Virus record (IMG/VR): IMGVR_UViG_2974586480_000001 | Direction: 5' to 3' (one strand) | From: a virus | Taxonomy: Duplodnaviria; Heunggongvirae; Uroviricota; Caudoviricetes | Length of the DNA stretch: 64,000 nt | Shown: positions 33,581-61,814 of the stretch, in pieces | Numbering within the stretch: the first letter of the stretch is position 1 | How the letters are laid out: each line of letters begins with the position of its first letter | Made by a program: the position numbers and the translations under genes | The notes under the pieces: generated by a model | What the model was told of the DNA's origin: nothing | Database searches by the model: none | The model's input: the letters and a program-made list of their open reading frames with translations, nothing else

Positions 33581-33582
33581 AG

Positions 33583-34791
33583 ATGGAACGTGTGCAAGTA
33601 CCCAAGGTTCGGCCTGACTGGAAAGAGCAGGTAGTGAGAGATGGTATGCTGTGGGCAGATACTGAAGATGGCCCGTATTGGTTTGAAGCCATGCAACAAC
33701 CAGTGTACTATAAATTCAGGGAAGTTGAAATAGACTCTCTGATGAAAGGTGGCGAGGTAATTCACCAAGCCATCCTTGAAGTCCTCACGAACCTCCTGAG
33801 CGATGGTGTTGAGAAAGAGTATGCTGAGAAATGGCGTAAAGCCTTCGGCCTCTCTGAGAAGTTATGGGATTTGGTCAAATACTCGTTCAACATTTCTGAT
33901 GAATGGGAATTCTTTGGCCGGTTCGACTTCTTAATGACCAGCCATGGCCCCAAGGTTTTGGAATACAACGCAGATACCCCGACAACTCTCATTGAGAGTG
34001 CGGTGTGTCAGTGGAACTGGTTTCAAGACATGGGCTTCGAGAAAGGTAGTCAGTTCAACAACATCCACGAGGGGTTGGTAAATCGTTGGAAAGAGCTCAA
34101 CGAGTTGAACAATCTCCGTGGCTCGGTAAACTTCGTCTCGGTCAACTTGATCGATGATGTGGCCACCTTGTGTTACATTGCAGAGACTTGCCGAGAGGCA
34201 GGCCTGGAAGTCCGTGTATTCCCTGTAGAAGATATTCAGTTTGATGAAGATAAAAAGGTGTTTCTCGATAATGAGGGGAATGTCTTGGAAAACTGCTTCA
34301 AGCTGTATCCTTGGGAGTGGATGATTCACGAGAAATTCAGTGAGCATCTGAGCACGGCTCCTACACGTTGGATGGAACCTGAATGGAAGTTGTTGGTGTC
34401 TAACAAGGCGATCCTCGCTCTGTTGTGGGATTACTACGGTGACACTTCGCATCCGGTTGTTAAATACCTGATGCCAACTTACATGGAAGGTGATTTCGGT
34501 GATTGGGATGGCAGTTGGGTAAGCAAACCCACCTTGAGCCGTGAGGGATCTGATGTCAAAATCATCAAGATTCACCAAGGTCAAGAAGAAGTCCTGTACT
34601 TCCACACCGGAATGTACTCCGAGGAATCTCGGGTGTATCAAAAGTTTATCCAATCTTTGACCTTTGAAGGATGCGTCCCAATGTTAGGTGTTTGGATGGC
34701 TGGCCCAGAAGCAGTTGGGCTCGGTATCCGTGAAGATGATTCACTGATTACCAAGAATAACAGCCGGTTCATACCGCACGTTTGGGAGTAA
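33583..34791 (+). CDS. glutathionylspermidine-synthetase-family (YgiC/YjfC-like) ATP-grasp amidoligase
   Basis: 'LLVSNKAILALLWDYYGDTSHPVVKYLMPTY' matches the GspS-family signature 'lsNKailplLWelfp.hpnLLpayf'. 402 aa. It pairs with the DUF1190 gene as in the E. coli ygiBC operon. Confidence 0.65.
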   Translation: MERVQVPKVRPDWKEQVVRDGMLWADTEDGPYWFEAMQQPVYYKFREVEIDSLMKGGEVIHQAILEVLTNLLSDGVEKEYAEKWRKAFGLSEKLWDLVKYSFNISDEWEFFGRFDFLMTSHGPKVLEYNADTPTTLIESAVCQWNWFQDMGFEKGSQFNNIHEGLVNRWKELNELNNLRGSVNFVSVNLIDDVATLCYIAETCREAGLEVRVFPVEDIQFDEDKKVFLDNEGNVLENCFKLYPWEWMIHEKFSEHLSTAPTRWMEPEWKLLVSNKAILALLWDYYGDTSHPVVKYLMPTYMEGDFGDWDGSWVSKPTLSREGSDVKIIKIHQGQEEVLYFHTGMYSEESRVYQKFIQSLTFEGCVPMLGVWMAGPEAVGLGIREDDSLITKNNSRFIPHVWE

Positions 34792-46104: not shown

Positions 46105-47028
46105 ATGAAAGTACCGTTTACTCGTTTTCAATCTTTGCTTAATGAGAATCCCAAAAACTGTCTACCCACTCTGAAGGAACATGGAGATAAATGGTGCGTT
46201 GTTACTGAGAAGATTCATGGTTCCAACCTGAGTCTTTACTTTACCAACGAGGGTATTCGGTTCGCTTCTCGTAACCAAGTCCTCCCTGAAGATACCAACT
46301 TCATGAACCTGAGCCGCTTCTTCACTCCTGAAAAGATGGATAAGCTGCACAAGGAAGTCCAGAACTTCTTGGATCTGGGTGGTTTCGAGACCCTTGTTAT
46401 CCGTGGTGAGATCTTCGGTGGCCATGATGCTGCTGGTGTTAAGCCGGTTCAGACTGCCATCCGTTATGATGGGGACATTCAGTTCCGAGTGTTTGCTGTT
46501 GAGTGTGATGGTGAGCACCTCTATTGGCCTGGCGTTATTGCCGTATCAAATGATTTGGAACTTCCTTTGGTTCCAGTAATTGCTGAAGGCCCTCTGTCTG
46601 AAATGTACCAACTGGAAGTGGAAGTTCCTAGTGTTCTTTGCTCCAATAAGGACATTCAAGAAGGGTTCTGCTTCCGTGTTGAGAACGAAGTTGAAGGTGA
46701 AGCACCTATTATACTGAAGCGTCGATCTGAGAAGTTTGCTGAAGTGAAAAACACCAAGGCAATCACTGAGAAGACTCTGGATCCTGCTGTCCTGAACCTG
46801 ATTGGTAAGATTGGTGATTACATCACCCCTCAGCGACTATCCAATGTCAACAGCCACTTCGGTTTTGATTCCATGAGGAACTTCGGTCAGCTCCATGCTG
46901 CCTTTATCGAAGATGTCAAGAAGGACTCTATGAACGAGTTGGGTCTTGATGAAGACGCATGGAAAGTTGTACGGAAAGAAGTTGGTTTCCGCGCTGTTCC
47001 TCTGATCAAAGAACTTCTGAGTGGTTAA
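46105..47028 (+). CDS. ATP-dependent RNA ligase, Rnl2-like
   Basis: Nucleotidyltransferase motif I 'TEKIHGSN' (KxHGxN, as in T4 Rnl2 'KIHGTN'). 307 aa. Confidence 0.6.
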   Translation: MKVPFTRFQSLLNENPKNCLPTLKEHGDKWCVVTEKIHGSNLSLYFTNEGIRFASRNQVLPEDTNFMNLSRFFTPEKMDKLHKEVQNFLDLGGFETLVIRGEIFGGHDAAGVKPVQTAIRYDGDIQFRVFAVECDGEHLYWPGVIAVSNDLELPLVPVIAEGPLSEMYQLEVEVPSVLCSNKDIQEGFCFRVENEVEGEAPIILKRRSEKFAEVKNTKAITEKTLDPAVLNLIGKIGDYITPQRLSNVNSHFGFDSMRNFGQLHAAFIEDVKKDSMNELGLDEDAWKVVRKEVGFRAVPLIKELLSG

Positions 47029-47252: not shown

Positions 47253-48107
47253 ATGCGTTACGCTGCTTTTGGTTATAAAAAAGGTTCTCCGGTAAGCAAC
47301 GATGTGACTATCTATGATGGTCAGGCTGGTTGCTGGGGTGTTCTGGCAGGGAACCACACTGTGGGGACGAATGTGATCAACCAAATCCACTTCGACCTGG
47401 AGTTGTCCCGTTTCCGCAATGGTGCATGGGATGCCCTGAAACCGAAGGGTATGTCCGACGAAGAGTTTGCCGAAAAGGCATTCGAGGCAATCAACGAAGG
47501 TTATCTGGACTACCGTTTCGAGATGAAAACTGGTTCTTCTGGTACTTCAAGCCTCCACCTGATCGTTGACAATCTCAGCGAAAAGCTTCGCCAACGTACC
47601 ATGTGGATCCTGTTTACTTTCCGTAGCATGATCCAGTACGTAACCAATGCTGGTAACGCAGCTTACCTCATTGCCGACATGAAGATGTCTATGACACTCC
47701 GTGAAAAGATCATCCTGTCCCAGATCTTCTACCGTGGTTCTGGTGATCTCGGGTCTGGTTTCAATGGGGAAGTATTCCTCTACAACTCCGGTGGTTGTGT
47801 CCTGTACACCCCTCACGTCACCATCGCTGATATCCGAGCCCTCCTTCGTGGCGGGAAGTATTACGAACTCGACAAGGTTTCCAAGGAGACTTGGTCTGTT
47901 GGTGGTGGTTACAAGTCGGATCAGAACGTTCAAAACATTGCCTGTGCAATGAATACCGGAAAATCCTCACCTGATCGGGATATTGAATCCCTGAGCAGCA
48001 TCATCCGCAATTCCGCATGGTTGGAGTATAACAACCGGAAAGGTTGCCTGAAAGAGGGTCAACTCCGCAAGTTTATCCGCTGGTTGAAATACTACAAAAA
48101 GGGCTGA
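47253..48107 (+). CDS. hypothetical protein
   Basis: 284 aa. TACTACGGTGAC sits at -27 to -15 of the ATG. Confidence 0.5.
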   Translation: MRYAAFGYKKGSPVSNDVTIYDGQAGCWGVLAGNHTVGTNVINQIHFDLELSRFRNGAWDALKPKGMSDEEFAEKAFEAINEGYLDYRFEMKTGSSGTSSLHLIVDNLSEKLRQRTMWILFTFRSMIQYVTNAGNAAYLIADMKMSMTLREKIILSQIFYRGSGDLGSGFNGEVFLYNSGGCVLYTPHVTIADIRALLRGGKYYELDKVSKETWSVGGGYKSDQNVQNIACAMNTGKSSPDRDIESLSSIIRNSAWLEYNNRKGCLKEGQLRKFIRWLKYYKKG

Positions 48108-48210: not shown

Positions 48211-49083
48211 ATGTCTGTTAAGATCAAATTCATATTCGATGGTTTGGATCCAGAAGGATATGGTGCTATCCGTGACATTTGTTATGGGAGCATGATGAAC
48301 GGTGCACGTTATAGCTTCCCCTCCCTATCCCTTGTTGGTAATATTTTCGGATCGATTTCATCTTCGAACGGAAACTGGAACAACGCCTTTGTTAAATCTG
48401 TAAGATCTTACTCTCCTGATGTTGATGGGAGACACAACCCAATTGAGTTAGAAGAGGAGGTTTGGGAGAGAATGAAGTTGGTGGCTGAGTCCAATAAAGA
48501 AGTATTTTGGCCAGTCACTTTCGGCGAAGAGGAAAAAGATGGAAAATTCTTTGAAGTATCTCTTGACTGCCCTGCTGATCAATTCTGGTTTTGCATAAAC
48601 ACTATCCGGTGTGTGCACGACACGTACATCTGCAACACAGACTTCTTTCCACAAGTTTCTGAAATAGTAGGTGTTTGGAAGGCTCTTCTCATTTTTGGGG
48701 GATACCGGTTCAACAAGGTTTGGAATGAGTCAAAAATTCGTGTCAGCCCTGTTGAAAGACCATCTTGGACTTGTATCTGGTCTCCATGTTTTGCTAACAA
48801 AGATTTTGTTACAACTCTTCTGAAATCACCAGAAAGCCTTTGTAATAAGTTGGAGCCTTTGAGAGCTGATGACAAAGACCTTGTCACCGTCTCCCGAATG
48901 GCTCTTGGTTTTGAAGAGGAGGAGTGGAATGACGAAGATCCTCGTTGGGAGGGGCCTATGACAGCTCTGTTTCAAGAAGGGTTTGACAAAAAACGCCACA
49001 GTTTGACATTCTCTGAAACTCTTCAGGCTCTCGAAGTGACTGACGAAGAGATTGAAAAGCTCCGTAAATTCATTTTTATTTAG
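48211..49083 (+). CDS. hypothetical protein, member of a 3-gene paralog family (DQxF..IR motif)
   Basis: 'CPADQFWFCINTIRCVHDTY' parallels 'GDQMFHVLSSIRNIEHYY' (49892) and 'ADQVFACLSVIRNIISYN' (50689). Confidence 0.5.
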   Translation: MSVKIKFIFDGLDPEGYGAIRDICYGSMMNGARYSFPSLSLVGNIFGSISSSNGNWNNAFVKSVRSYSPDVDGRHNPIELEEEVWERMKLVAESNKEVFWPVTFGEEEKDGKFFEVSLDCPADQFWFCINTIRCVHDTYICNTDFFPQVSEIVGVWKALLIFGGYRFNKVWNESKIRVSPVERPSWTCIWSPCFANKDFVTTLLKSPESLCNKLEPLRADDKDLVTVSRMALGFEEEEWNDEDPRWEGPMTALFQEGFDKKRHSLTFSETLQALEVTDEEIEKLRKFIFI

Positions 49084-49091
49084 GAAATACA

Positions 49092-49490
49092 ATGACTAAA
49101 GAAGTTCTGGTTGCCACCTACGGCTCTCTTCGGAGTGGCCAAGCTAATTACCACGTAAACTCCCGAGCAGGGGGTGAAAGTATTGGTGAGGGTTGGACTT
49201 GCAAAGAGTATCAACTTGGCCGATACCGTGGTGCTTACTTTCCGGTGGTTACTCTGGGTAATCCGGTGTCCCAAGTACGTGTCGAAGTGTTTAAAACCAC
49301 TGAAGATGGCCTCCATGGCCCTTACGATGCGCTGGAGGGTTTTCCTAGCTTCTACAATCGCACCCAAGTTCCGGTGCGTATGGATGATGGTACGGAAGTC
49401 ATGGCGTGGATTTATCACATCGAACGAAATGATGTTGCCAGTGAAGTGGTAAAACACGGTGACTGGGTTAAACATCTGGACAACATGTGA
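49092..49490 (+). CDS. gamma-glutamyl cyclotransferase (GGCT/AIG2-like)
   Basis: N-terminal 'LVATYGSLRSGQANYH' (YGSL motif). 132 aa. Confidence 0.6.
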   Translation: MTKEVLVATYGSLRSGQANYHVNSRAGGESIGEGWTCKEYQLGRYRGAYFPVVTLGNPVSQVRVEVFKTTEDGLHGPYDALEGFPSFYNRTQVPVRMDDGTEVMAWIYHIERNDVASEVVKHGDWVKHLDNM

Positions 49491-49550
49491 GTTTCATCAA
49501 GGGTGCTCTACGAGTGCCCTTCTTAAAAATCACACCAACAAGGGGTTAAT

Positions 49551-49892
49551 ATGAAAGCCGAAGAAAAAGAGTTTTTGGAAAAACAGATTGAGTGGGAAGT
49601 GAAAAGTTCCACCTTTATCAGTAAACAGCTGAAGGATCTGAAAGAGTTGGTTAAGGCCAATGCTGCCAACAGCCGTCTCCTTAAAGAGACTATCGCAACC
49701 ATCTCTCGGGCAACTGCAAATCGTGAAGGTGGTAGCCTCTCTACAGCAGCTGTCCAGCAGGCCCTCATCAGCGCAAAACGCCAAAGCGTGAATCTGCAAA
49801 GCCGTCGTGAAGATCTGAAGAAAAAACTTCGCCAAGGTCGTATCATGAAGAACGCTTTTGAGCAAGCCTTGGGGAATAGCGAGGTTAAGTAA
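49551..49892 (+). CDS. coiled-coil protein
   Basis: 113 aa and charged/helical. Confidence 0.4.
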   Translation: MKAEEKEFLEKQIEWEVKSSTFISKQLKDLKELVKANAANSRLLKETIATISRATANREGGSLSTAAVQQALISAKRQSVNLQSRREDLKKKLRQGRIMKNAFEQALGNSEVK

Positions 49893-50692
49893 TGATCCGG
49901 TACAAAATCCATGGTGTGAGTGGGCATGTGATTTCAGTTCATGATCACTGCTTCCGAGGACTTTCTGTCCACACACCCATGTACTACCTGCATGACTGGT
50001 ATGTAGATGGAAAGGATGATCTGGATGAAGATGCTGAAGAAATTTTTGACAATGTGAGGAACAATGTCGATTTTGTTGAGTATACACTGGACAAGTCGAA
50101 CAATTTGTCAAAAGACATTCTTGAAATTGTTGAAAATGTAAGCTGGATTAAGGAAATTACGACTGTAGTAGAGAACCGGAATAAGTACCACTTCTTGGTA
50201 AGTGGTGATGCACCTGGGGATCAAATGTTTCATGTGTTGTCCTCCATAAGGAACATTGAGCATTATTACGGTGAGTCATTTTTGAGACACCGTAACGGTC
50301 TTAACCCTTACCAAGCTTTCATTATGTCAATGTATGTAGTGTCTAACATTGATTTCAGAGGAAACCCTGTATACTCTGGTTTCAACTCTGGCAATGATTA
50401 TATGTGGGCCAACTTTGACACAACTACTAAAAAATCAGTACGTAGTGTCATAGAAAATGGCCCCCGTTGGTATCTTCCCAGACGTTCTGTTAATTACTGT
50501 CATCAAAAACTGGATTTCATTCCAGAGGTACGGGGAGTCTCACGTGAAGACCCTGACTCTATAGAGTGGACATCTAGTTTGAACAAGCAATTGTTTCGGT
50601 CTTTTGAGATTCCATCAACAGAGGGTGAAGAACCTGAAGTTTTTGAGAGTCCTAAAGAGTTGGCAGACTATATCTTGAGGTTAATTGTATGA
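49892..50692 (+). CDS. hypothetical protein, paralog family member 2
   Basis: 266 aa, sharing the DQxF..IRN motif. Confidence 0.5.
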   Translation: MIRYKIHGVSGHVISVHDHCFRGLSVHTPMYYLHDWYVDGKDDLDEDAEEIFDNVRNNVDFVEYTLDKSNNLSKDILEIVENVSWIKEITTVVENRNKYHFLVSGDAPGDQMFHVLSSIRNIEHYYGESFLRHRNGLNPYQAFIMSMYVVSNIDFRGNPVYSGFNSGNDYMWANFDTTTKKSVRSVIENGPRWYLPRRSVNYCHQKLDFIPEVRGVSREDPDSIEWTSSLNKQLFRSFEIPSTEGEEPEVFESPKELADYILRLIV

Positions 50693-51657
50693 GTGTTAGC
50701 TTCTATTATGATGTAGTGGACAATGGTAATATCTATCGTGTGCACAAGTCGTCAGCCTGCTTCGGTGGGCTGGCTTCTCATGTTGCCGGAGAAAGAACTG
50801 GGTGGAGAATTGTAGATCAAACAGGTTCTCGTATTTTCAACAGATCCGAGATGGCCCCTCAACTCATAAACAAAATCGTCAATCTCGATACCGATGAGAT
50901 TGTTTATGATGTAATGTCATCCCTCTCTCGAAGCAACAATATGTACATCCTTGGCATGACTCAGATGTACTCTTTACCTGTTTTAAAAATTCGTCTGAGG
51001 AATCTCTTTTCGGATTTTGTTATGATCCAGAAAGAGATTCCATGGATGGAACCACTATCCTTTGATTTTAAAAATATGAGCGTGAATGTCAATACGAACT
51101 TCCCTGCTGATCAGGTATTTGCCTGTCTGAGTGTGATTCGTAACATCATCTCATATAATTATCCACACTATCTAGTATTCTTGAGGAAAGGTTTTAGTCG
51201 AAAAGATTCCTTCATCTTGTCTCAGAATTTCAAATTGGTTAGAGATGCTTTTGGATCAGAGCACCTCTCTATCATCCCTCCGTGTGACTACATGATGTGT
51301 CATCATGGTTTGATGCGAGACGTAGATGTTGAAAACCTCTTCAATGGAGTTTCTTTCTTTAAGCAAGTGGATATGAAGAATAGTGGCGGATATTTGAAAT
51401 ATATCAATGACTCTCGGAGCCTTGCCGGTGTGCGTGATACATCGCAGATCGACGAACTTTTCAGAGTGTTTGGTGCAGAAATTCGCCATTATCCAAACTC
51501 CGCCAACTTTCTTGATCCGTTGGCAGATGGGGATTATATTTTTGATTCGGATACCAGAGATTCAATCATTGAGTCTTCGGATATTTCGAATGAACAAGTC
51601 CAAGAGGCTTTCGAATCTTGGGTAAATATTTTAAACGAGGTTAATACAAATGGATAA
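50689..51657 (+). CDS. hypothetical protein, paralog family member 3
   Basis: 322 aa, sharing the motif. It overlaps its neighbours. Confidence 0.5.
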   Translation: MSVSFYYDVVDNGNIYRVHKSSACFGGLASHVAGERTGWRIVDQTGSRIFNRSEMAPQLINKIVNLDTDEIVYDVMSSLSRSNNMYILGMTQMYSLPVLKIRLRNLFSDFVMIQKEIPWMEPLSFDFKNMSVNVNTNFPADQVFACLSVIRNIISYNYPHYLVFLRKGFSRKDSFILSQNFKLVRDAFGSEHLSIIPPCDYMMCHHGLMRDVDVENLFNGVSFFKQVDMKNSGGYLKYINDSRSLAGVRDTSQIDELFRVFGAEIRHYPNSANFLDPLADGDYIFDSDTRDSIIESSDISNEQVQEAFESWVNILNEVNTNG

Positions 51658-52462
51658 TCAGCTGAAATTCGCCACCGACGCAGAACTTTTTGTGCGGGAC
51701 TCCAAGACCGGCCTTCTGACCAGCGTTGCTGGCCTTCTGGGTGCGGACAAGTACAACAAGCGTATCCTCACCGAGGATGTTCGCATCCAAGAGGATAACG
51801 TTCTCTTGGAGTTTGATATCAACCCCCACACTGAGTCGGAAATGTTCCTGAAAAACATCTCCTCTGCCATGGATCTGTCTCGTGGAGAGGCAGAGAAGCT
51901 GGGGTTCGAGGTGGTGGATCGTGTGTGTAGCCATATCTACACTGCACAGGAGCTGGAAACCTTCCACAAGGATGCATTCGTGTTTGGGTGTGACCCAGAC
52001 TTCAATGCCCTGAGTGGTGAAATGAACCCCAAACCTCAGGCAAAAAATGCCGGCCTCCGCACCGCAGGTGCCCACGTACACATTGGTTACAGCGACCTCC
52101 GTCCAGTGACCTTCCAAGATCAACAGGTCTTGGGTGTCATGTGTGATTACTTCCTCGGCCTCCCCTCCCTTCTGTTGGATACCGGTGAGGATGCGATTCG
52201 TCGTCGTGAACTCTACGGCAAGGCTGGGTCTGTCCGCTTCAAACCCTACGGTATCGAGTATCGTACCCTCAGCAACTTCTGGGTATTCGATGAAGTCAAC
52301 CGATCTTTCGTATGGGAACAGGCCAATAAGGCTTTTGAAGCCATGGCTGGTGACTTCATGGCACTCGTTCGTACCGTGGATCCGTTGGATGTTCAGAATG
52401 TCATCAACAATGGTGACACCGCGATGGCCCAACAGTACGTCAAACTTCTGAAACTGGCATAA
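51650..52462 (+). CDS. Amidoligase_2 (COOH-NH2 ligase, GCS2-like) family protein, short paralog
   Basis: 'TDAELFV', 'GAHVHIGY' and 'YGIEYRTLSNFW' match the GxExE...HVHvg...EfRqf pattern. The antisense 411-aa ORF is judged spurious. Confidence 0.5.
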   Translation: MDNQLKFATDAELFVRDSKTGLLTSVAGLLGADKYNKRILTEDVRIQEDNVLLEFDINPHTESEMFLKNISSAMDLSRGEAEKLGFEVVDRVCSHIYTAQELETFHKDAFVFGCDPDFNALSGEMNPKPQAKNAGLRTAGAHVHIGYSDLRPVTFQDQQVLGVMCDYFLGLPSLLLDTGEDAIRRRELYGKAGSVRFKPYGIEYRTLSNFWVFDEVNRSFVWEQANKAFEAMAGDFMALVRTVDPLDVQNVINNGDTAMAQQYVKLLKLA

Positions 52463-52471
52463 GGAGTTTTT

Positions 52472-53077
52472 ATGTCTCTGGCAAGTGATTTCAATATGTA
52501 TTACAGCGAGACCTTTGTCGGATTCCAGACTCCGAATGGGCTCGTACCTCTCTATGTACATGCTGTTAGTTTCGACAGTAATGCCAATATCGACTTCGAT
52601 ACCCACGACCCCAATGCCATGGAGCACCTGATGTTCCATGTCCATGACATCGTGGATCATCCAGAAGAAGGTATCACCTACAGCAGCAACTCCCGTCGTG
52701 TGTCTATCAATGATCTGGTTCTGGATATGCCAAAACTGGGTTATTATGACATTCCTGGCGAAGGCCGTGTGTGGTTGTCGTATAACCCACAGCGTAGCAC
52801 GAAGAAAGGTTTTACTTTCCGACGTACTACTTGGCGTGGTGATAGCAATCGTCGTCGTCTCAACCTTGTCCGACAAGTATTCTCAGACACTCGTTCGGAC
52901 TTCGAACGTAACTTCCACTTCGTCCGTGATCGTGGTTTTCAACGTATCATGTACAAGGGGTTGAACGTAGGACGACTGAATCCTGACAACGATATCCGTC
53001 TCCACCCAGAAGCTGGGTATTTGCGTGAGATTGTTCAAGCTGGACTGGGGGTTCAAGATGCCAATAACGCCTCCTAA
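52472..53077 (+). CDS. hypothetical protein
   Basis: 201-aa ORF inside the amidoligase cluster. Confidence 0.45.
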   Translation: MSLASDFNMYYSETFVGFQTPNGLVPLYVHAVSFDSNANIDFDTHDPNAMEHLMFHVHDIVDHPEEGITYSSNSRRVSINDLVLDMPKLGYYDIPGEGRVWLSYNPQRSTKKGFTFRRTTWRGDSNRRRLNLVRQVFSDTRSDFERNFHFVRDRGFQRIMYKGLNVGRLNPDNDIRLHPEAGYLREIVQAGLGVQDANNAS

Positions 53078-54365
53078 TGGGCGAATGTCATTGTCTGAAA
53101 TCCTCAGGGCTTCTAACCAAGTTCTGGGGACTTCTCGGGCAGATCGCCAAGACTTTGGAACAATTGCCCGTGTAGTCAACGAACCTTTGTGGTTTCAAGA
53201 TGATTGGCGGGATATGGGTTTAAGACCGGACGAGCCCCCACCATCCCCTCCACCACCTCCTGCTCCACAGCCTGAAGAGGATGTTGATGCAGCGGTAGAA
53301 GGGCCACACGACGATTCAGAAAGTTTTGGATTTGATGGTGAGGTTTCTTGGGAGGGTGTTGAAGCTCGTGCAGCGGAGGGGATTTCTCTCAGACGAACCT
53401 CTCCGACACCGGCTTTCGAAGTCCAGTTCAACAACAGCCTTGCAAGCTCAATGCAAACCTTGGCAGCGGGTGGGATCAGACGTGCTCGCCCTGTCAGGGG
53501 TAACCCCGTACAAGAACAAACATTCGACAGTGAAGAGGAATTCGAAATGCGTACTGTTGGGAGCATCGTAGGCCGTGAGCCTGATGTATCTACCGTCACC
53601 CCCCACCAACTTGTGTTGGGGATCAATCGGGTTGGTGTGGAAATTGAAGTGGAGCGGTTTAATAACCGTCGTGCAAGACTTCGTTACTGGAACCTCGTGT
53701 CCGATGGTTCACTCCGTAACAACGGTCAAGAGTTTACCTTCCGAGGGGCTCTTGGTGGTAAGGATGCGTTCGATGCAATCTCCGAAATCGACACCCTTCT
53801 GTATCAGGCAAACCCTGAACTGAATATCCGGTGTTCTACCCACGTCCATGTGGATGTTCGCGACATGACTGTACCTCAGTTGAAACGGATGATTCTGGCC
53901 TACGCCTTCTATGAATCATTCCTGTTCAACCAATCTGGTCGTCATCGGATGAAGTCCAACTTCTGTATGCCGCTGTGTATTGCAGAAGGTCTGACCCATA
54001 TCCTTATGGATTACTGGGGGAATACAGATGCAGACTTTATCTTTAACGTCACTGATCGTTGGGATAAATACTCTGCCATCAACCTGATTCCCATCCGTTC
54101 TTACGGTTCTGTGGAATTTCGTATCGCTGAAGGCAAGTCGAAGAGTGGTCAGCTCCTTCGCCTTGTTAACCGGTTCCTTGCTCTCAAGGAGATTGCGGTA
54201 GAGAAGGATATGTCTGATCGTGAGTTTCTGGACTTCCTCCGTGAAACGGATTACCGGATGATTTTCCGCAAGGGTATTCGTCGTCAGGTGGCCTTCACTG
54301 AAGAGGATATCCAGACCGGTTGGATTATTGCCAACGACATCGCCACTCTTGGCAAAATGCGCTAA
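53058..54365 (+). CDS. Amidoligase_2 (COOH-NH2 ligase) family enzyme with a Pro-rich N-terminal linker
   Basis: 'VGVEIEVERF', 'LVSDGSL', 'CSTHVHVDVR' and 'GSVEFRIAEG'. ATG at 53058 after a GGGGGT RBS. The N-terminus has 'PPPSPPPPPAPQP'. Confidence 0.6.
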   Translation: MPITPPNGRMSLSEILRASNQVLGTSRADRQDFGTIARVVNEPLWFQDDWRDMGLRPDEPPPSPPPPPAPQPEEDVDAAVEGPHDDSESFGFDGEVSWEGVEARAAEGISLRRTSPTPAFEVQFNNSLASSMQTLAAGGIRRARPVRGNPVQEQTFDSEEEFEMRTVGSIVGREPDVSTVTPHQLVLGINRVGVEIEVERFNNRRARLRYWNLVSDGSLRNNGQEFTFRGALGGKDAFDAISEIDTLLYQANPELNIRCSTHVHVDVRDMTVPQLKRMILAYAFYESFLFNQSGRHRMKSNFCMPLCIAEGLTHILMDYWGNTDADFIFNVTDRWDKYSAINLIPIRSYGSVEFRIAEGKSKSGQLLRLVNRFLALKEIAVEKDMSDREFLDFLRETDYRMIFRKGIRRQVAFTEEDIQTGWIIANDIATLGKMR

Positions 54366-54410
54366 TGGCCCTTAGGGGCCTTTTAAAATGGTTACATAAG
54401 AGGAAATAGT

Positions 54411-56951
54411 ATGTGCGGAATCGTTCTGATGGGTTGTAAGTACCCTGGTGCCCGTGATGTTGATTTGTTTGAGCAACTGTTGTTTGCGGACACCTTCCGT
54501 GGGCCTCATTCGACTGGTGTACACAGCCTGTTCCAGTTGGAAGACAAAGGCCCTGTTATCACTGAAACCCAAAAGAAGCAATTGGATGGCCCAGCCTTCA
54601 TTGCCTCCAACCTTTGGCCACTCGTGTCAGAAAGACGTGTGCCTGGCGCTACCGCCAACTCGGTTCTGATCAAGCGCCCTTTCTGCATGATCGGCCACAA
54701 CCGTTGGGCCACCAAGGGTGGTATCAACGATGCGAACGCTCATCCGTTTAACCATGGGCATATCACCATGGTTCATAACGGTACTCTCCGCAATCAAGCC
54801 CTCCTTCCAGATCATGCAAAGTTCGAAGTTGACAGTGATAACGTTGCTTATGCACTTTCTGTTTGGGGTGTTGAAAAGACTGTTCAAAACCTGAACGGTG
54901 CTTTCACCCTGATTTGGCACGATGCGAACCTGCAAACCGTCAACATCATCCGTAACAGCGAACGTCCATTCCACTTGGCACGTACCTCTGCTGGTGATTG
55001 GTTTGGCGCTTCTGAGGAATCCATGTTGAAGTGGATCCTTTCTCGTCAAAAGGTTCCTGTTACTGTAGCAGAATCTTTCGAGTGTGAAGTTGGTGTTCAG
55101 TACATCTTCGATGTGTCAACTGGCAAATTCTTGCCTAAGGAGAATGTGAAGCACGAGCTTCCTACCTTTCGCACGACTTTCTACCAAGGCTTCTCGCAAG
55201 GCGCTTCGTCGTATTATGATGATGAGTACGACTACGACACTTGGTGGAACGAACGGGGAACACGACACAGCACCAACACCGAGACGCGGCAAGCGCAACA
55301 AGCGCGGTCGTCGACGTCGGTAAGCACTACAGATGCCGCAAAGCGTCGTGAAATGAATAATCTCCTGTGGGAACATGGGATTACCCAGCGCATCGGAGAT
55401 CGTGTCAATTTCACCTCTACCGACTTTCAGAGCTATCCTAAAAATTCTCCGTATGGCGAAATGGTCGGATACCTCGACACCAAGGAGTATGTAGGGACTA
55501 TCAGCCATGGTGTTGAAAAGAAACTGTACAACCAGTTTCAGGAATATCGTGGTGAAATTGTTAAGGCTGTTGTCGAAGATGGCACCCTCTACGTAACTAT
55601 TTCCAAGCCAATGCTCTTGGAGTCGATCATCGAACCTCGCGAGGATGGTGAACCCAATGGGAACATTGCCCTCATCGAATACCCCAACGTTGGAACTCGT
55701 TTTGAGTACAAAATCACCCATATCAACATGACAACCCGAACTTGGTCTGGTCAAACAGCCACTGGGATTGATGTGTATGGTGATTGGTTCCATCGTTACT
55801 CAGGTATGGAGGTTGGTGATGTGTGGTCTGGTCGGTCTGTAGTCCGTGTGGATAACCGTTATCGGATGGCAGATTGTATCAAGGTCTCTGGTAAAGAGGG
55901 GTTGGAAGGTGAGATTAAAGAGGGGGATAAGGTGAAATTCCGAATCACTTCTTTGAATCTTGGTACAACCTCTTTTGAAGGCATGACCGTCAAGGGTAAT
56001 CAGAAGGTCTCGGGTTCGATTCCAACTAACCTCTCCATGGCTCTTGGGGAAGAGTTTGAGGGTGGCGTCTACATTGCTTTTAATGACAAAAGCTTTCGTG
56101 TCAACAACGTATGCCGCCCAGGGACTGTGTCCAACCAAGAACTTCTTGCATCCATTGCCGATCTGGTGGTAGATGATGAGAAGGTAAACACCACCGCTAC
56201 CGGTGAGCGATTCACTGCAAAAAAGTGGGAGGAGAGTCTGGTTTCAACCTGCTGCGCTTGTTCCTCTCCAATCTCCTTCGATGATATGAAGGATGCAGTT
56301 ATCATCAGCGGGTACTCATTCTGCAAAGAATGTAAGGATTTGGATCCCCCTTTTGATGGGGTAGTCATCAATCATCCAGTAGCTGTTGCGGAGAATTGGT
56401 TTGACTGCCCAGAATGCGATATGCGTAAGCATATGGTTGTAAAATCAAAAAACAGCAATCTGTGCATCACTTGTGAAGGTAAAAAGTCACGAGTGACACG
56501 TCCAATCCTTTCAGTATCTGTGACTTCCAATCGTGCCCGTCTCGATAGTGATATGGGGAAAGAGGTTGAGTTTGTCATAACCCAACTGGCAACAGGCCCT
56601 GCATTCTGGGGCAAAACCAGAACTGATATCGCAGTTAGTGGTGTTATCCCCGAAGACGTTGTTGCCCACGTTGGTGAGATATGGAAAGGGGTTATCTCTC
56701 ACAAATTTGTTGACGGTTCCTATCGAATCGAAAACATAAAAAAGCGGTCTACATCTGAAGTGGTTCGAAGTATCAGCGATAACCGTGACATCAAAACACT
56801 TCCTAACGGAGCTTCTATCAAGAAAGATCTGTGGGACAAGATGTGCAACTGCAAGCATTGTTCCAACCCAATTCCTTGGGACGACGCTGATTTGGTAACA
56901 TTTGTAGGTGGTGTACCTGTGTGCAAAACCTGTGAAAAAGTTTTAATTTGA
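54411..56951 (+). CDS. class-II glutamine amidotransferase (Ntn hydrolase) fused to a large C-terminal region with multiple zinc ribbons
   Basis: Begins 'MCGIV' (N-terminal nucleophile Cys). 'FRGPHSTGVHS' and 'IGHNRWATKGGINDANAHPF' parallel GlmS '[20 protein letters not shown]'. The C-terminus has CxxC pairs (CCACSS...CKECK, CPECD...CITCEG, CNCKHC...CKTCEK). 846 aa. Confidence 0.7.
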   Translation: MCGIVLMGCKYPGARDVDLFEQLLFADTFRGPHSTGVHSLFQLEDKGPVITETQKKQLDGPAFIASNLWPLVSERRVPGATANSVLIKRPFCMIGHNRWATKGGINDANAHPFNHGHITMVHNGTLRNQALLPDHAKFEVDSDNVAYALSVWGVEKTVQNLNGAFTLIWHDANLQTVNIIRNSERPFHLARTSAGDWFGASEESMLKWILSRQKVPVTVAESFECEVGVQYIFDVSTGKFLPKENVKHELPTFRTTFYQGFSQGASSYYDDEYDYDTWWNERGTRHSTNTETRQAQQARSSTSVSTTDAAKRREMNNLLWEHGITQRIGDRVNFTSTDFQSYPKNSPYGEMVGYLDTKEYVGTISHGVEKKLYNQFQEYRGEIVKAVVEDGTLYVTISKPMLLESIIEPREDGEPNGNIALIEYPNVGTRFEYKITHINMTTRTWSGQTATGIDVYGDWFHRYSGMEVGDVWSGRSVVRVDNRYRMADCIKVSGKEGLEGEIKEGDKVKFRITSLNLGTTSFEGMTVKGNQKVSGSIPTNLSMALGEEFEGGVYIAFNDKSFRVNNVCRPGTVSNQELLASIADLVVDDEKVNTTATGERFTAKKWEESLVSTCCACSSPISFDDMKDAVIISGYSFCKECKDLDPPFDGVVINHPVAVAENWFDCPECDMRKHMVVKSKNSNLCITCEGKKSRVTRPILSVSVTSNRARLDSDMGKEVEFVITQLATGPAFWGKTRTDIAVSGVIPEDVVAHVGEIWKGVISHKFVDGSYRIENIKKRSTSEVVRSISDNRDIKTLPNGASIKKDLWDKMCNCKHCSNPIPWDDADLVTFVGGVPVCKTCEKVLI

Positions 56952-56960
56952 GGATTTTAG

Positions 56961-57182
56961 ATGACAGAAATGAGTGAAGTAAAAAGTCTGCGGCTTGAAC
57001 AGCCTGTGGTGGTGCGTAAAGTGCCGATGACTGCACAGGGCTGCAATATGCTGAGAGCAATCCGAGATTACCAGATGGCAGAATATGCTGCTCGTGGTGA
57101 TAACGTAGAGATTCCGTTTCCGGTGGCCATCCACCTGATGATGCGTGAATTCTGCGCAATGAAGAACATCACTGTTCATTGA
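56961..57182 (+). CDS. hypothetical small protein
   Basis: 73-aa ORF with an RBS. Confidence 0.4.
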   Translation: MTEMSEVKSLRLEQPVVVRKVPMTAQGCNMLRAIRDYQMAEYAARGDNVEIPFPVAIHLMMREFCAMKNITVH

Positions 57183-57260
57183 TAAGTTAAAGGGGTTAGG
57201 AAACTGACCCCTTTGCCATTCTCACTGAATGTTTCATAAATGTTAATTAGAGGTTACACA

Positions 57261-58442
57261 ATGTCTACTATCCGTATTTACCCTTATGGCCCTTCTGAAT
57301 CTGCTCGAACCTTGAAGGAAGGCCTTTCTGAAACCTTCCCGAACACAGCAGTTCTTCGCCGTGAGGGGAGTCGTTACCGTCCGCGTGAAGGTCACTTCCT
57401 CATCAACTATGGTTCCAGTGAAGTGAACATGGACATGCGTGGTTTGAACGTGTTCAACCGCCCTGAGCATATCCGTAATGCCTCCAACAAAATCCGTGCC
57501 TTCGAGGCTTTCGCTGCTGCGGGAATCCCGACTGTAGATTGGACTACTGATCGGAACATGGCAGAGGGTTGGATGAATGACAACCAAGTTATCTACGCCA
57601 GAACTCGACTTCAAGGCCATTCTGGTGAGGGGATTGTGGTATGTTCTCGCCAGAACGTCGAAGGTATGGGTAACACCTTCCCTGTCGGTAACAACCTTGT
57701 AAACGCTCCGTTGTATACCAAGGGTGTGACCGGAAACCGTAACGAGGTTCGTGTCCATGTCGCCTTTGGTCGTGTGATTCTGGAGCAAAAGAAGAAGCGT
57801 GTTGAGGGTTACAGGGATCTCCCCAACTACTCCAATGTAGTTCGTAACCACAGCACTGGGTGGATCTACGCAACTGAAGATCTGAACATCCCTCAAGAGG
57901 TTCGTGATACAGCAGTCCGTGCTGTAGCCGCGTTGAACTTGGATTTTGGTGCTGTTGACATTGTTTACAAAGGTCGTACTCGTTTTGAGGTTTACGTACT
58001 CGAAGTCAACACTGCCCCTGGCCTGTCAGGTGAGTCCTCTCGTGTAGCTTATGTTCGTGCTTTTACGGATCGTATCAACGGTGTGGAACCTGCCGAAACC
58101 CCAGAACCTGCCGTTGTGGCAAACCAAGAACCAGTTGTGGCTCAGGAGGCCAACCATGTTCAAGAAGTTCAACCTGCCGTTGTGGAAGAAGTACAAGTTG
58201 CACCTGCCGCAGTTCAACGATCTGCCAGTCAACCTCGAACTGCCGAACGACCCCAACGACCCAATGCCCAAGAAGCACGTTCTGCACTGATTGAAGGGCA
58301 CTTCTATGTAGTTCACCACACTCCGTCCGAGACTCGTATGGTGGTTGTATACCAGAACTCCGAGATGTGGCCCTGCGGTGTGGAGATGGGTATCCCTCCG
58401 ACCGAATGTCGGATCATCCGTGAAATCAATATCGAAGACTGA
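57261..58442 (+). CDS. ATP-grasp ligase (RimK-like) with a low-complexity P/V/A/Q/E-rich C-terminal region
   Basis: 'LNLDFGAVDIVYKGRTRFEVYVLEVNTAPGL' is typical of the ATP-grasp C-terminal half. The tail reads 'EPAETPEPAVVANQEPVVAQEANHVQEVQPAVVEEVQVAPAAVQ'. Confidence 0.65.
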   Translation: MSTIRIYPYGPSESARTLKEGLSETFPNTAVLRREGSRYRPREGHFLINYGSSEVNMDMRGLNVFNRPEHIRNASNKIRAFEAFAAAGIPTVDWTTDRNMAEGWMNDNQVIYARTRLQGHSGEGIVVCSRQNVEGMGNTFPVGNNLVNAPLYTKGVTGNRNEVRVHVAFGRVILEQKKKRVEGYRDLPNYSNVVRNHSTGWIYATEDLNIPQEVRDTAVRAVAALNLDFGAVDIVYKGRTRFEVYVLEVNTAPGLSGESSRVAYVRAFTDRINGVEPAETPEPAVVANQEPVVAQEANHVQEVQPAVVEEVQVAPAAVQRSASQPRTAERPQRPNAQEARSALIEGHFYVVHHTPSETRMVVVYQNSEMWPCGVEMGIPPTECRIIREINIED

Positions 58443-58450
58443 GGTATTTA

Positions 58451-58666
58451 ATGGCTTACACAGTTTTAGATTATACCAACTACAAAGGGGATCGCAAAAA
58501 GAGAGCTGTGATCCCTCTTAAAGTTCGGTTTGAATCCAACAACGAATACCATGGTGCCTCTTGGATTCTTGAGGCATATGATGTAAACAAGCGTCGTGTT
58601 CGTAGTTTTGATATCAAACAAATCCATAACCCAGAAGTCTTGGAGAATATAGACTTCACAAAGTAG
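58451..58666 (+). CDS. hypothetical small protein
   Basis: 71 aa. Confidence 0.4.
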   Translation: MAYTVLDYTNYKGDRKKRAVIPLKVRFESNNEYHGASWILEAYDVNKRRVRSFDIKQIHNPEVLENIDFTK

Positions 58667-58675
58667 GTTAAATTT

Positions 58676-59479
58676 ATGAAATCTAAATTTCAAGTTTTCG
58701 TACAGGGTATGGCCATCAACACCAGTATTTTTCAATTCTCTGGTGGTGAGTACCAAGTTAACCTTGACAAGTTGGTTATTGCAGGGAACAATCCTGTAAA
58801 AGCTCACATACAAGCTTTCATCTTGGATGGAGATATCATGCCATTGGCACTGATTGTGGATGCACTCCGTGGGGTATACGGGGATTGCTCTATCTCTTTA
58901 GACCTCCCGTACCTTCCCTACGCTCGCCAAGACCGTGTAATGAACAGCGGTGAAGCCTTGTCCTGCAAGGTATTCTGTGACATGATCAACGGACTTGGTT
59001 TCTCCAATGTCTATATCAATGATTGCCACAGTGATGTTGGTCTGGCTTTGATCAAAAATGTAACCAATATCCCGTTGCAACTTCCAACGGAATATGCGTA
59101 CATTCTGAATCCACTTCACAAGCCGTACGATGCTATCGTAGCCCCAGATGCCGGTGCCTTGAAGAAGTCTTACAAGGTTGCCCAATCCTATCATATACCT
59201 GAACTCATCAGAGCAGATAAAACCCGAGATGTGACCAATGGTGTCATCACAGGCACTGTGGTGTATGGTGACGTTGAAGGTAAACGCCTCATTGTGTGTG
59301 ATGACATCTGCGATGGTGGTATGACCTTCATCAAACTGGGTGAAGAACTGCGTAAACAGGGGGCAAAGTCAATCGACCTTCATGTTACCCATGGGATTTT
59401 CAGTAAAGGTAAAACTGAACTTCTCAAACTGTACAACAACGTAACTGCAACCTTCGATTATGAGGAGATGTTCAAATGA
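58676..59479 (+). CDS. ribose-phosphate pyrophosphokinase (PRPP synthetase)-like, candidate Adps of a NARP1-type pathway
   Basis: 'LPYLPYARQDR' (Prs signature) and the PRPP-binding loop 'RLIVCDDICDGGMTF'. 267 aa, shorter than cellular PrsA. Confidence 0.6.
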   Translation: MKSKFQVFVQGMAINTSIFQFSGGEYQVNLDKLVIAGNNPVKAHIQAFILDGDIMPLALIVDALRGVYGDCSISLDLPYLPYARQDRVMNSGEALSCKVFCDMINGLGFSNVYINDCHSDVGLALIKNVTNIPLQLPTEYAYILNPLHKPYDAIVAPDAGALKKSYKVAQSYHIPELIRADKTRDVTNGVITGTVVYGDVEGKRLIVCDDICDGGMTFIKLGEELRKQGAKSIDLHVTHGIFSKGKTELLKLYNNVTATFDYEEMFK

Positions 59480-59911: not shown

Positions 59912-60168
59912 GTGGGATTCTACTGGGCATCCTCTATATTGTTATAGGGTTGATCGCTGCGACTTGTTATCAAGTTGTAATAAGGTTCTACCAAAATGGA
60001 ATGTTGTATGATGAAGATTCTATCATATCTTTCATTGTTGCAATATTTTGGCCAGCCGCCATACCAGCAACTGTATTGACATGGTTGTTCAGCAATATTG
60101 TTTGCAATTTCAATGATGTATCTGAAAAGATATATAATAAACTCTCCAGTAAAAAGGATTCAAAATGA
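59908..60168 (+). CDS. small membrane protein
   Basis: 86 aa and hydrophobic. Confidence 0.35.
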   Translation: MSGILLGILYIVIGLIAATCYQVVIRFYQNGMLYDEDSIISFIVAIFWPAAIPATVLTWLFSNIVCNFNDVSEKIYNKLSSKKDSK

Positions 60169-61814
60169 GCTTTTCTGCCACCGCCGCTGATGCCTATAAA
60201 GTCTCTCACAAAGGTTTTATGGAGCCTGGCACCAATCGTATCTACTCCAACTTCACGGCCCGCAACTTCAAGCATATGCCGATTCCTGCACACCTGAAGG
60301 ATAACAAAATCGTTTGGTTTGGTATCCAAGCATATGTTACTGAGAAGCTGGTGAATAAGTGGAACTCCACTTTCTTCAAAAAACCCAAAGATGCCGTGTG
60401 TCGCCGTCTTGCACGTCGATTCAACACCTTCTTCGGACAAGACAAGGTAAATGTCAAGCATTTTGAAGAACTGCATGACTTGGGCTACCTTCCTATCCAC
60501 ATCAAATCCTTGCCAGAAGGTTCTGTTGTTCCGGCCAAAGTTGCACTGATGACCATCACCAACACTGATGATCGTTTTGGCTGGTTGACCAATTATCTGG
60601 AAACACAAATCAGTTCTGATCTGTGGAAACCTGCCACCGTTGCAACTATCGCCCGTGCTTATCGCAAACTGTGTGACAAGTATGCAATGGAAACCGTTGG
60701 TAGCACTGACGGTGTCGAGTTCCAGTGCCATGACTTCTCCATGCGTGGTATGTCTGGTGAAGAGGATGCAGAACGTTGTGGCCCTGGCCATCTTCTGTTC
60801 TTCAAGGGTACTGACACCCTCCCAGCAGTAGACCGTATCGAGGATTACTACGGTGTCGATGCTGAGAAGTTCTTTATCGGTACTTCTGTACCAGCATCTG
60901 AGCACTCTCTGGCATCTCTGGGGTATGCTGTTCGTGGTGAACTGGAAGCCTTCCGTAAATGGATGACTGTGGATTATCCAACAGGCATTGTGAGTTTGGT
61001 GTCCGATACCACTGATTACTGGAAAGTTTTGAGCGAGTATGCACCAGCTCTCAAGGATAACATTCTGGCCCGTAAGCCAGATGAACTCGGTCTGTGCAAG
61101 GTCGTGTTCCGTCCTGACTCTGGTAATCCAGCTGACATCCTCTGTGGTCATGAGTACATTGAGATCACTGATGAAAAGGATTTCTACTGGCACTACTGCA
61201 ACACCACTCAGGATGACACCTTCGTGAAAATCGGAGAAGAGTTCTTTGAGCTGTCTTGGGATATTCACTGGGCCGATGGATACAGTGAATATGAAGGTTT
61301 CACCATTGGTAACAAGGTTGATCCTCGTGTCATCAAGGGTTCTGTAGAACTTCTGTGGGACACTTTCGGGGGTACTATCACTGAGAAGGGTTATAAGATG
61401 TTAGATTCTCACGTAGGTCTGATCTATGGCGACTCTATCACCCTTGCTGTTGCAGAAGACATCTTCAAGCGACTCAAGAAGAAAGGTTTTGCCTCCCTGA
61501 ACGTTGTTTTGGGCATCGGTTCTTATACCTATAACTACCTGACCCGTGACTCTGCTGGTATGGCTATCAAAGCCACCTATGCAGAGGTGAACGGTAAGCC
61601 GGTAGTCCTGTCCAAAGATCCTGTTACTGATGATGGCACCAAGAAATCTGCCAAAGGTCTGATTCGTGTAGAACGTCAGAACGGAACTTTTGTTCAGTTT
61701 GATGAGCAAACCTCTGAACAGGAAAAAGTGGGAGCCCTCGAAACCATCCTCTTTAATGGTGCCCAGTTTAATCTGAAAACTTGGGATACCATTATCGAAA
61801 CTGCAAACGCTTAA
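60165..61814 (+). CDS. nicotinamide phosphoribosyltransferase (NAMPT/NadV)-like, candidate Namat
   Basis: N-terminal 'ADAYKVSHKGF' (the DSYKxSH hallmark of the NAMPT family). 549 aa. The antisense 426-aa ORF is judged spurious. Confidence 0.65.
   Translation: MSFSATAADAYKVSHKGFMEPGTNRIYSNFTARNFKHMPIPAHLKDNKIVWFGIQAYVTEKLVNKWNSTFFKKPKDAVCRRLARRFNTFFGQDKVNVKHFEELHDLGYLPIHIKSLPEGSVVPAKVALMTITNTDDRFGWLTNYLETQISSDLWKPATVATIARAYRKLCDKYAMETVGSTDGVEFQCHDFSMRGMSGEEDAERCGPGHLLFFKGTDTLPAVDRIEDYYGVDAEKFFIGTSVPASEHSLASLGYAVRGELEAFRKWMTVDYPTGIVSLVSDTTDYWKVLSEYAPALKDNILARKPDELGLCKVVFRPDSGNPADILCGHEYIEITDEKDFYWHYCNTTQDDTFVKIGEEFFELSWDIHWADGYSEYEGFTIGNKVDPRVIKGSVELLWDTFGGTITEKGYKMLDSHVGLIYGDSITLAVAEDIFKRLKKKGFASLNVVLGIGSYTYNYLTRDSAGMAIKATYAEVNGKPVVLSKDPVTDDGTKKSAKGLIRVERQNGTFVQFDEQTSEQEKVGALETILFNGAQFNLKTWDTIIETANA

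Follow-up and report, generated by a model that had tools for sequence, protein, structure and literature searches.

What do the amide-bond-forming enzymes encoded next to the replication genes of an Aeromonas phage make, and is their combination new? The question is raised by a run of plus-strand genes in a tailed virus of the class Caudoviricetes (IMG/VR record IMGVR_UViG_2974586480_000001), of which a 64,000-nt stretch, here called the window, was analysed; coordinates refer to it. A preliminary description had placed at 48211-58442 a cluster of amidoligase, glutamine amidotransferase, ATP-grasp and gamma-glutamyl cyclotransferase (GGCT) genes, and had predicted from them a peptide-tag or small-metabolite system that might be undescribed and might act jointly with a neighbouring Prs-like/NAMPT-like gene pair. 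The genes are the Lahexavirus copy of a phage cassette first noted in phiEco32. Its core is invariant: five genes in fixed order encoding a COOH-NH2 ligase, a protein of the phrog_4877 family, an Amidoligase_2 protein, an N-terminal nucleophile (Ntn) amidotransferase and a RimK-like ATP-grasp ligase. Alongside it is either GGCT, usually with a family of paralogs termed PADQ, or a Peptidase_C26 protein, and both accessories cut gamma-glutamyl amide bonds. The function that we tentatively favour is a glutamate-centred pathway with a transient gamma-glutamyl group, followed by extension, amidation and deprotection; the product is probably a small molecule. The preliminary interpretation is partly supported. 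It was right in kind, and right in the general class that it named, a system forming amide bonds in a peptide or small metabolite and known from computational prediction only; it was wrong on novelty and on the link to the Prs/NAMPT pair.

A phage cassette with an invariant five-gene core

The sequence at 48211-58442 is 100% identical to Aeromonas phage 4_4572 (MK813943 / NC_048773; Lahexavirus; 102.9 kb; record position 38916 is window position 1), and is 97-99% identical to phages LAh_6, LAh_8 and LAh_9. All of the cassette genes are on the plus strand, in a long early/middle block that continues into primase/helicase, DNA polymerase and nucleotide-metabolism genes. Searches of Pfam, PHROG, NCBIfam and the PDB recovered all five gene classes of the preliminary description at the places given there, and its amidoligase, class-II amidotransferase, ATP-grasp and GGCT domain assignments hold in profile searches. 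The left boundary at 48211 does not hold: the gene at 47253-48107 (g131) belongs to the PADQ family, and the cassette therefore starts at 47253, about 1 kb further left. The cassette has 8-12 genes in about 11 kb, roughly one-tenth of the phage 4_4572 genome. A scan of the region for promoters and terminators found no more than chance would give, and it was not used to delimit operons. PADLOC returned no defence-system match, and NCBIfam models returned sub-threshold matches only.

Evidence that the cassette is a recurrent phage element came from its distribution. A tblastn search with the COOH-NH2 ligase retrieved 316 phage records, including 121 from Pseudomonas and 94 from Escherichia, with others from Vibrio, Aeromonas, Proteus, Salmonella and Cronobacter and one from a crAss-like gut phage. 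The ligase is also present in at least 579 IMG/VR contigs. Among 185,579 species genomes only 36 loci were found, nearly all on contigs of metagenome-assembled genomes and many of them the size of a phage genome; the family is therefore essentially phage-restricted. The order of the core genes is repeated in Kuravirus, Bruynoghevirus, 7-11-like phages, Zobellviridae and a crAss-like phage, and the presence of same-order homologues in hundreds of phages indicates that these are real genes rather than chance open reading frames (ORFs). A fuller string is found in Kuravirus SU10, Bruynoghevirus PaP3 and Libingvirus BUCT695: two unknowns of about 300 aa, the COOH-NH2 ligase, a protein of about 200 aa, Amidoligase_2, a zinc-ribbon amidotransferase, a DUF7195 protein of about 72 aa, the ATP-grasp ligase, GGCT and primase/helicase. 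The published gene table of the LUZ24-like phage UFV-P2 has the same string, and in Moazamivirus SE131 the order is the same apart from GGCT, which was not found within 10 kb. Synteny in related phages is thus as the preliminary description would have it, and the proposal of an undescribed gene complement falls, since the same complement occurs in the same order in SU10, PaP3, UFV-P2 and BUCT695. Zobellviridae phage CW02 and the crAss-like phage cr108_1 carry variant cassettes. That of cr108_1 (L004 5679-12735) is rearranged, with the ATP-grasp gene followed by two unknowns of about 300 aa, Peptidase_C26, ligase, amidotransferase and amidoligase, and lies within the replication module between primase and uracil-DNA glycosylase genes.

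To quantify the core, ORFs were called in 86 related loci and assigned by iterative searches; 68 of the loci have full flanks and are counted as complete. Amidoligase_2 and the amidotransferase are present in all 68 complete loci, and the phrog_4877 protein and the ATP-grasp ligase each in 67, almost always in a single order. With this near-universal presence and its constant place between the two ligases of glutamine synthetase (GS)-like fold, the phrog_4877 protein of about 200 aa is a core member. DUF7195, found in 22 of the 68, is confined to GGCT-type cassettes, where it lies between the amidotransferase and ATP-grasp genes.

The window cassette has every element of the phiEco32 type: COOH-NH2_lig, Amidoligase_2, an amidotransferase with N-terminal Cys and an ATP-grasp ligase in the fixed order, and a gamma-glutamyl-cleaving accessory. 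The two also share the position upstream of primase/helicase and the restriction to phages. They differ in that the window has four PADQ genes instead of two, has GGCT upstream among the PADQ genes, whereas in other phages it is 3' of the ATP-grasp gene, and has an extra ORF, g135. In addition, the amidotransferase here has three extra repeats and three zinc ribbons, and the ligases have tethered terminal modules. In the relevant passages of PMC10580990 and PMC11318856, the cassette is traced to Iyer et al. 2009. Full-text literature searches found no experimental characterisation of it.

Catalytic potential of the cassette enzymes

The COOH-NH2 ligase, Amidoligase_2, the amidotransferase, the ATP-grasp ligase and GGCT all retain their catalytic residues. 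In the COOH-NH2 ligase, the metal- and ATP-binding residues D10, E12, E54, H142, H144, E203 and R205 are intact and fall in invariant alignment columns. In Amidoligase_2, the catalytic part spans aa 155-426 and, read from the sequence, keeps the ExExE and HxH motifs; its N-terminus (53085-53550) is a lineage-specific module of about 45 aa on a poly-Pro and acidic linker that includes PPPSPPPPPAPQP (aa 51-63). Two Amidoligase_2 proteins, one with a poly-Pro linker, had been claimed. The linker-bearing protein is indeed Amidoligase_2, but the other belongs to COOH-NH2_lig, a sister family in the same superfamily. Both families (PF12224 and PF14395, respectively) were reportedly described from phiEco32-type genomic context. 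Neither ligase has a solved structure that a sequence or profile search of the PDB could detect. In the intervening g139 (phrog_4877) family, polar positions that are conserved are few (D6, Y11 and an RxPxRQWKKG-type motif), and searches gave no Pfam or PDB match.

The amidotransferase consists of a glutamine amidotransferase domain with a conserved extension (aa 1-395), then three repeats of about 65 aa and three zinc ribbons. Its N-terminal Cys, R73, W74, T76 and H97-N98-G99, and by inspection D123, align to E. coli GlmS, and since these residues line the GlmS pocket, the pocket for L-glutamine or a gamma-glutamyl group is intact. The preliminary description of an MCGIV protein with class-II amidotransferase and C-terminal zinc ribbons stands, except that its three or four ribbons are exactly three, with CxxC...CxxC pairs at aa 614/638, 666/685 and 814/838 in the C-terminal half. 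Interleaved with them are the beta-rich repeats (about aa 425-495, 504-575 and 714-785; window 55683-56765; pairwise z 6.6-15.3). The repeat stretch has no Pfam match and no counterpart in the homologues compared from SE131, BUCT695, SU10 and PaP3. Zinc ribbons were considered as a universal amidotransferase feature and rejected, being present in 26 of 81. While the protein shares with GlmS an N-terminal Ntn glutaminase domain and the glutamine-binding residues, it lacks SIS isomerase domains and is therefore not GlmS; its scores are about ten-fold below cut-off (34 bits against 418 for TIGR01135, 39 against 381 for NF001484). The RefSeq product name GlmS is, judged from this domain content, a misannotation. 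Models of EgtC, PurF, GlmS and AsnB gave weak matches, all far below family cut-offs.

The ATP-grasp ligase is best started at 57261 rather than 57240, on alignment with its homologues. A core (aa 1-273) that, on reading the sequence, keeps the E-x-N motif is followed by a low-complexity linker and a C-terminal module of about 55 aa (58080-58442). The PaP3 and CW02 homologues are shorter and lack the tethered modules of this enzyme and of Amidoligase_2, a difference suggesting that the modules serve for docking in a multi-protein assembly. A RimK-like ligase with a low-complexity tail, as first described, is borne out at superfamily level (TIGR00768, E 4e-14), and the best solved structure is 7qyr, an alpha-L-glutamate ligase (3e-5). 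RimK identity itself was rejected: the protein scores 52.5 against a cut-off of 143.4 for TIGR00768 and 23.5 against 331 for PRK10446, far below both, which makes the RefSeq name "Ribosomal protein S6 glutaminyl transferase" misleading. The DUF7195 alignment, in our own reading, suggests a strand-helix-helix protein.

Alternation of GGCT and Peptidase_C26

GGCT in the window has the YGSL motif and the conserved LEG glutamate, as read from its sequence. Where GGCT is missing from a cassette, the extra upstream gene encodes a Peptidase_C26 protein of about 210 aa, of the gamma-glutamyl hydrolase/PuuD family (3e-20 to 3e-12). Across the 86 loci, 42 have GGCT only, 33 have C26 only, two have both and nine, several of them truncated, have neither. 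The near-exclusivity of the two accessories is significant in a Fisher's exact test that was not corrected for phylogeny (p 3.5e-13). This alternation points to cleavage of a gamma-glutamyl bond as a required step. The amidotransferase is retained in both types of cassette, so it does more than duplicate a gamma-glutamyl peptidase and is more likely a true ammonia donor.

The PADQ paralogs

The three mutual paralogs of the preliminary description, g133, g136 and g137, are true paralogs, but with g131 they number four. g133 and g136 match at 6e-3 by blastp, and g136 and g137 at 2e-5; jackhmmer connects g133 to g136 (3e-17) and g137 (2e-13), and ties g136 to both ORFs of about 300 aa in BUCT695 and SE131 and to SU10 gp089. 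g133 matches the PADQ profile at 3e-32, having been among the sequences used to build it. g131, which had no match in Pfam and PHROG searches, is matched at E 1e-8 by a family profile built without it, and a Foldseek search of BFVD with the g137 model returned the 284-aa protein of the same phage, g131 (E 1.3e-3, prob 0.99).

PADQ is a small and fast-evolving family. A word-indexed protein search gave almost no matches, and a full HMMER scan of 1.84 billion representatives gave only 60 relatives, none with a Pfam domain. With 49 sequences from that scan, AlphaFold2 modelled g137 confidently (predicted local distance difference test, pLDDT, 84.5; predicted TM-score 0.86; pLDDT was 34 with 9 sequences). 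Neither a sequence/profile search of the PDB nor Foldseek of the g137 model against it gave a match. The nearly invariant positions of g137 (G12, C24, R151, N152 and G234) are, as far as the alignment indicates, unlike a ligase site. PADQ proteins are 21-28% identical to their BUCT695 counterparts across half of their length and alignable to those of SE131 over 30-51 residues only, whereas the cassette enzymes are 40-58% identical to theirs in both phages; by this measure the family evolves far faster than the enzymes. It is detectable in 40 of the 86 loci, 39 of which lack Peptidase_C26, and each of its 53 hits is immediately 5' of the COOH-NH2 ligase gene. In the window, the g137 ORF overlaps its two neighbours by 4 nt and 8 nt, and from these overlaps the PADQ proteins are predicted to be translationally coupled to the COOH-NH2 ligase. 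The stop codon of g135 and the start codon of g136 overlap by 1 nt; g135 itself has no homologue in the 86 loci and no Pfam or PHROG match. Comparison of the PADQ and g139 families with the cassette enzymes by hhalign gave no match, a result that carries little weight because the positive control, the two GS-fold ligases, reached only E 0.018. A likeness between a DUF7195 motif and the RN helix of PADQ was not significant and was dropped.

Table 1. Genes of the cassette and the adjacent Prs-like/NAMPT-like pair, with window positions and the matches or grounds on which each was assigned
Gene or product	Position	Strand	Length (aa)	Basis
g131, fourth PADQ paralog (outside the coordinates first given)	47253..48107	+	284	Family profile, fold
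g133, PADQ paralog	48211..49083	+	290	blastp, jackhmmer, family profile
Gamma-glutamyl(amine) cyclotransferase, AIG2/GGACT-like	49092..49490	+	132	PF06094 6e-18; phrog_2520 2e-36
g135, lineage-specific helical ORF	49551..49892	+	113	Membership inferred from position
g136, PADQ paralog	49892..50692	+	266	blastp, jackhmmer
g137, PADQ paralog	50689..51657	+	322	Paralogy, predicted structure
COOH-NH2 ligase type 2, GS/GCS-fold	51650..52462	+	270	PF14395 2e-10; phrog_3815 2e-94
g139, phrog_4877 family	52472..53077	+	201	phrog_4877 2e-29
Amidoligase_2, GS/GCS-fold	53085..54365	+	426	PF12224 6e-8; phrog_7469 3e-66
Ntn (class-II) glutamine amidotransferase	54411..56951	+	846	GATase_6 7e-16 on aa 91-190; starts MCGIV
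DUF7195 small protein	56961..57182	+	73	PF23825 5e-35
RimK-family-like ATP-grasp ligase	57261..58442	+	393	PF08443 2e-4; phrog_2599 2e-97
Prs-like gene	58676..59479	+		PF14572, PF00156, PF13793
NAMPT-like gene, four genes from Prs-like	60165..61814	+		PF04095, PF18127

A proposed glutamate-centred pathway

Each enzyme family of the cassette has known members that act on glutamate or glutamine: GS, gamma-glutamylcysteine synthetase (GCS), PuuA and PafA among the GS/GCS-fold ligases; RimK, MptN, CofF and LysX among ATP-grasp enzymes; the GlmS-type glutaminase; and GGACT. Ligases of the GS/GCS fold form an amide between an amine and a carboxylate that they first activate, in most cases the gamma-carboxyl of glutamate. 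RimK-family ATP-grasp enzymes extend a terminal carboxylate by L-glutamate, and GGACT and C26 enzymes cleave gamma-glutamyl-amine bonds, normally of small molecules. In PuuA/PuuD (ligase and C26) and BtrJ/BtrG (ATP-grasp and GGCT), the gamma-glutamyl group serves as a temporary protecting group, and LysX/LysW applies the same logic on a carrier protein.

A short pathway of this kind, expressed together with the replication genes, is the reading that we put forward, tentatively, for the cassette. One GS-fold ligase would join the gamma-carboxyl of glutamate to the amine of a small acceptor, for example an amino acid, short peptide or polyamine, so that the gamma-glutamyl group would act as a temporary protecting or handle group. 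The ATP-grasp ligase would then add an amino acid, probably glutamate, onto a free carboxylate, and the second GS-fold ligase would convert a carboxylate to an amide with ammonia supplied by the amidotransferase. Finally, GGCT would release the gamma-glutamyl group as 5-oxoproline and free the finished amine. PADQ, the protein of about 200 aa and DUF7195 would be non-catalytic partners in specificity, scaffolding or regulation. In a more specific and rather doubtful version, this multi-step pathway would be particular to viruses and would lead, through gamma-glutamyl-protected intermediates, to the amide of an amino acid or dipeptide with its amine free, or to a polyamine conjugate; PADQ would be a new fold, a specific partner of GGCT, and would determine which acceptor is used.

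Several points weigh against the proposal. The order of the steps, like the substrate, the intermediate and the product, is a prediction from gene content. PADQ, phrog_4877 and DUF7195 are conserved, yet searches of domain and structure libraries found no catalytic signature in them. Zinc ribbons, tethered mini-domains and fast-diverging paralogs are seen more typically in systems with macromolecular targets. In the reading reported for Iyer et al. and the Pfam authors, the amidotransferase is not an ammonia donor but a thiol peptidase. Lastly, given the lack of phylogenetic correction noted above, GGCT-type and C26-type cassettes may simply be two clades.

The likeness to PuuA/PuuD, BtrJ/BtrG and LysX/LysW lies in the pairing of an ATP-dependent ligase of GS or ATP-grasp fold with a C26 or GGCT remover. 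The logic is analogous only: the phage enzymes are not orthologues, and the cassette lacks an oxidase, an acyl carrier protein and a LysW-like carrier. The glutathione/gamma-glutamyl cycle (GshA, GshB, GGCT/ChaC) and EgtA with EgtC show the same combination of folds, namely a GCS-like ligase, an ATP-grasp ligase, an Ntn amidohydrolase or amidotransferase and a cyclotransferase. Unlike those systems, the cassette has two GS-fold ligases rather than one, and a thiol substrate is not indicated.

Alternative explanations

The main rival to a small-molecule pathway is protein tagging or editing, in which the ligases, working much like pupylation enzymes or RimK, would put glutamate or short glutamyl chains on host or phage proteins, at their lysines or C-termini, with PADQ proteins as target adaptors or pseudo-ligases and GGCT, C26 or the amidotransferase as erasers. 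We regard this as possible although somewhat unlikely. GS-fold ligases and a RimK-like ATP-grasp enzyme are common to the cassette, pupylation (PafA/Dop and Pup) and RimK glutamylation of S6, and RimK is the closest solved relative of the ATP-grasp ligase. The speed at which PADQ diverges relative to the enzymes, its lineage-specific expansion to four copies here, and the zinc ribbons and tethered mini-domains would also suit a tagging system, as would a directed-evolution study of Bruynoghevirus in which missense changes struck both amidoligase and amidotransferase in two independent lines. However, the cassette has neither a Pup-like tag nor a proteasome or RimA/RimB context: among the cassette families of six phages and in the DUF7195 alignment, there was no Pup-like GGQ/GGE protein and no conserved acidic C-terminus usable as a RimK/LysX acceptor. 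Furthermore, GGCT and C26 are known for small substrates, and the C26-type cassette retains the whole enzyme core without PADQ and DUF7195.

Cell-wall remodelling is improbable. It would alter peptidoglycan stem-peptide precursors (gamma-D-Glu, meso-diaminopimelate, D-Ala-D-Ala or amidation) and so block superinfection or time lysis. The only functional proposal, attributed to Iyer et al. 2009 in the passages of PMC10580990 and PMC11318856 that treat the cassette, is a cell-wall modification blocking superinfection, or secondary metabolite synthesis. Gamma-glutamyl and amidated carboxylates do occur in stem peptides, most of the isolate hosts that can be identified are Gram-negative, and the ATP-grasp ligase has D-Ala-D-Ala ligase matches, although these are weak and far under cut-off. 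The recognised carriers are, by an untallied impression of their morphology, mostly podoviruses, which would also fit. Yet the core contains no Mur-ligase, MurT/GatD, transpeptidase or membrane-associated component, and the cassette sits among replication genes, in the crAss-like phage inside the replication module itself.

Modification of nucleic acid, as an amino-acid-derived adduct on phage DNA or tRNA, is very improbable. It would draw on the proximity of primase/helicase and nucleotide-metabolism genes, the 20 tRNA genes and RNA ligase 2 of the phage, and the zinc ribbons that some lineages have on the amidotransferase; those ribbons are confined to the 26 proteins counted above, there is no base-hydroxymethylase, kinase or transglycosylase partner, and 45-kb carriers have no other modification genes. 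Moreover, native nanopore sequencing of a phage that its paper groups with the cassette carrier tf revealed nicks and no base modification.

The least probable alternative is the earlier suggestion of a joint pathway in which the Prs-like and NAMPT-like genes help make a nucleotide-peptide conjugate: although the pair begins 234 nt 3' of the ATP-grasp gene on the same strand, it lies within 10 kb of the cassette in just 5 of the 68 complete loci, which makes a combined pathway unlikely, Kuravirus and Bruynoghevirus do not have it near the cassette and SE131 has it about 10 genes upstream, and it fits NARP1 in Pfam signature and gene proximity.

Neighbouring genes

NARP1 (Adps and Namat) is an NAD+ reconstitution counter-defence operon found in 4.3% of phages. 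In the window, as in NARP1, a PF14572 gene and a Nampt gene (PF04095, PF18127) lie within 10 genes of each other in a phage. The pair is probably an independent module, of NARP1 type rather than one for synthesis of phosphoribosyl pyrophosphate and nicotinamide mononucleotide.

Directly after the ATP-grasp gene, 58451-58666 (+) encodes a 71-aa protein with a weak WYL-domain match (1e-4), kept at this place in SE131 and BUCT695 and found in 6 of the 86 loci overall. Just upstream of the cassette, 46105-47028 (+) encodes a T4 Rnl2-type RNA ligase (RNA_ligase 1.5e-19, with T4_Rnl2_C); the tRNA genes lie elsewhere in the genome. A second, separate amide-ligase module at 32658-34791 (+) encodes a small K+-channel-like protein (Ion_trans_2, 124 aa), a DUF1190 protein (183 aa) and a glutathionylspermidine-synthase-family ligase (GSP_synth 6e-104, 402 aa), and resembles the E. 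coli ygiB-ygiC and yjfM-yjfC pairs. Other plus-strand genes of the early region encode a Nudt16-like Nudix hydrolase (26545-27090), an AAA/STAND-like ATPase (38726-39937), a DUF2828/DUF7788 protein (41005-42396) and an SPFH/Band-7 protein (42575-43465).

Significance

For the window itself the finding is an ordinary one, a known, computationally described system in an already deposited genome. The alternation of GGCT and C26, the near-universal protein of about 200 aa and the definition of PADQ are modest new leads, better pursued in phages of E. coli or Pseudomonas. The cassette is carried by enterobacterial, Pseudomonas, Vibrio and marine podoviruses and, at the other extreme, by a crAss-like gut phage; some carriers (Bruynoghevirus) are used in therapy. 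For the tractable relatives phiEco32, SU10 and LUZ24, the leads are the five-gene core, the interchangeable GGCT and C26 genes, and the phage-only, fast-evolving PADQ family; loss of GGCT or C26 would be expected to trap a gamma-glutamyl intermediate. In the rather doubtful, virus-specific version of the pathway given above, the product would be a widespread secondary metabolite that phages make while they replicate and that serves counter-defence or the takeover of the host.

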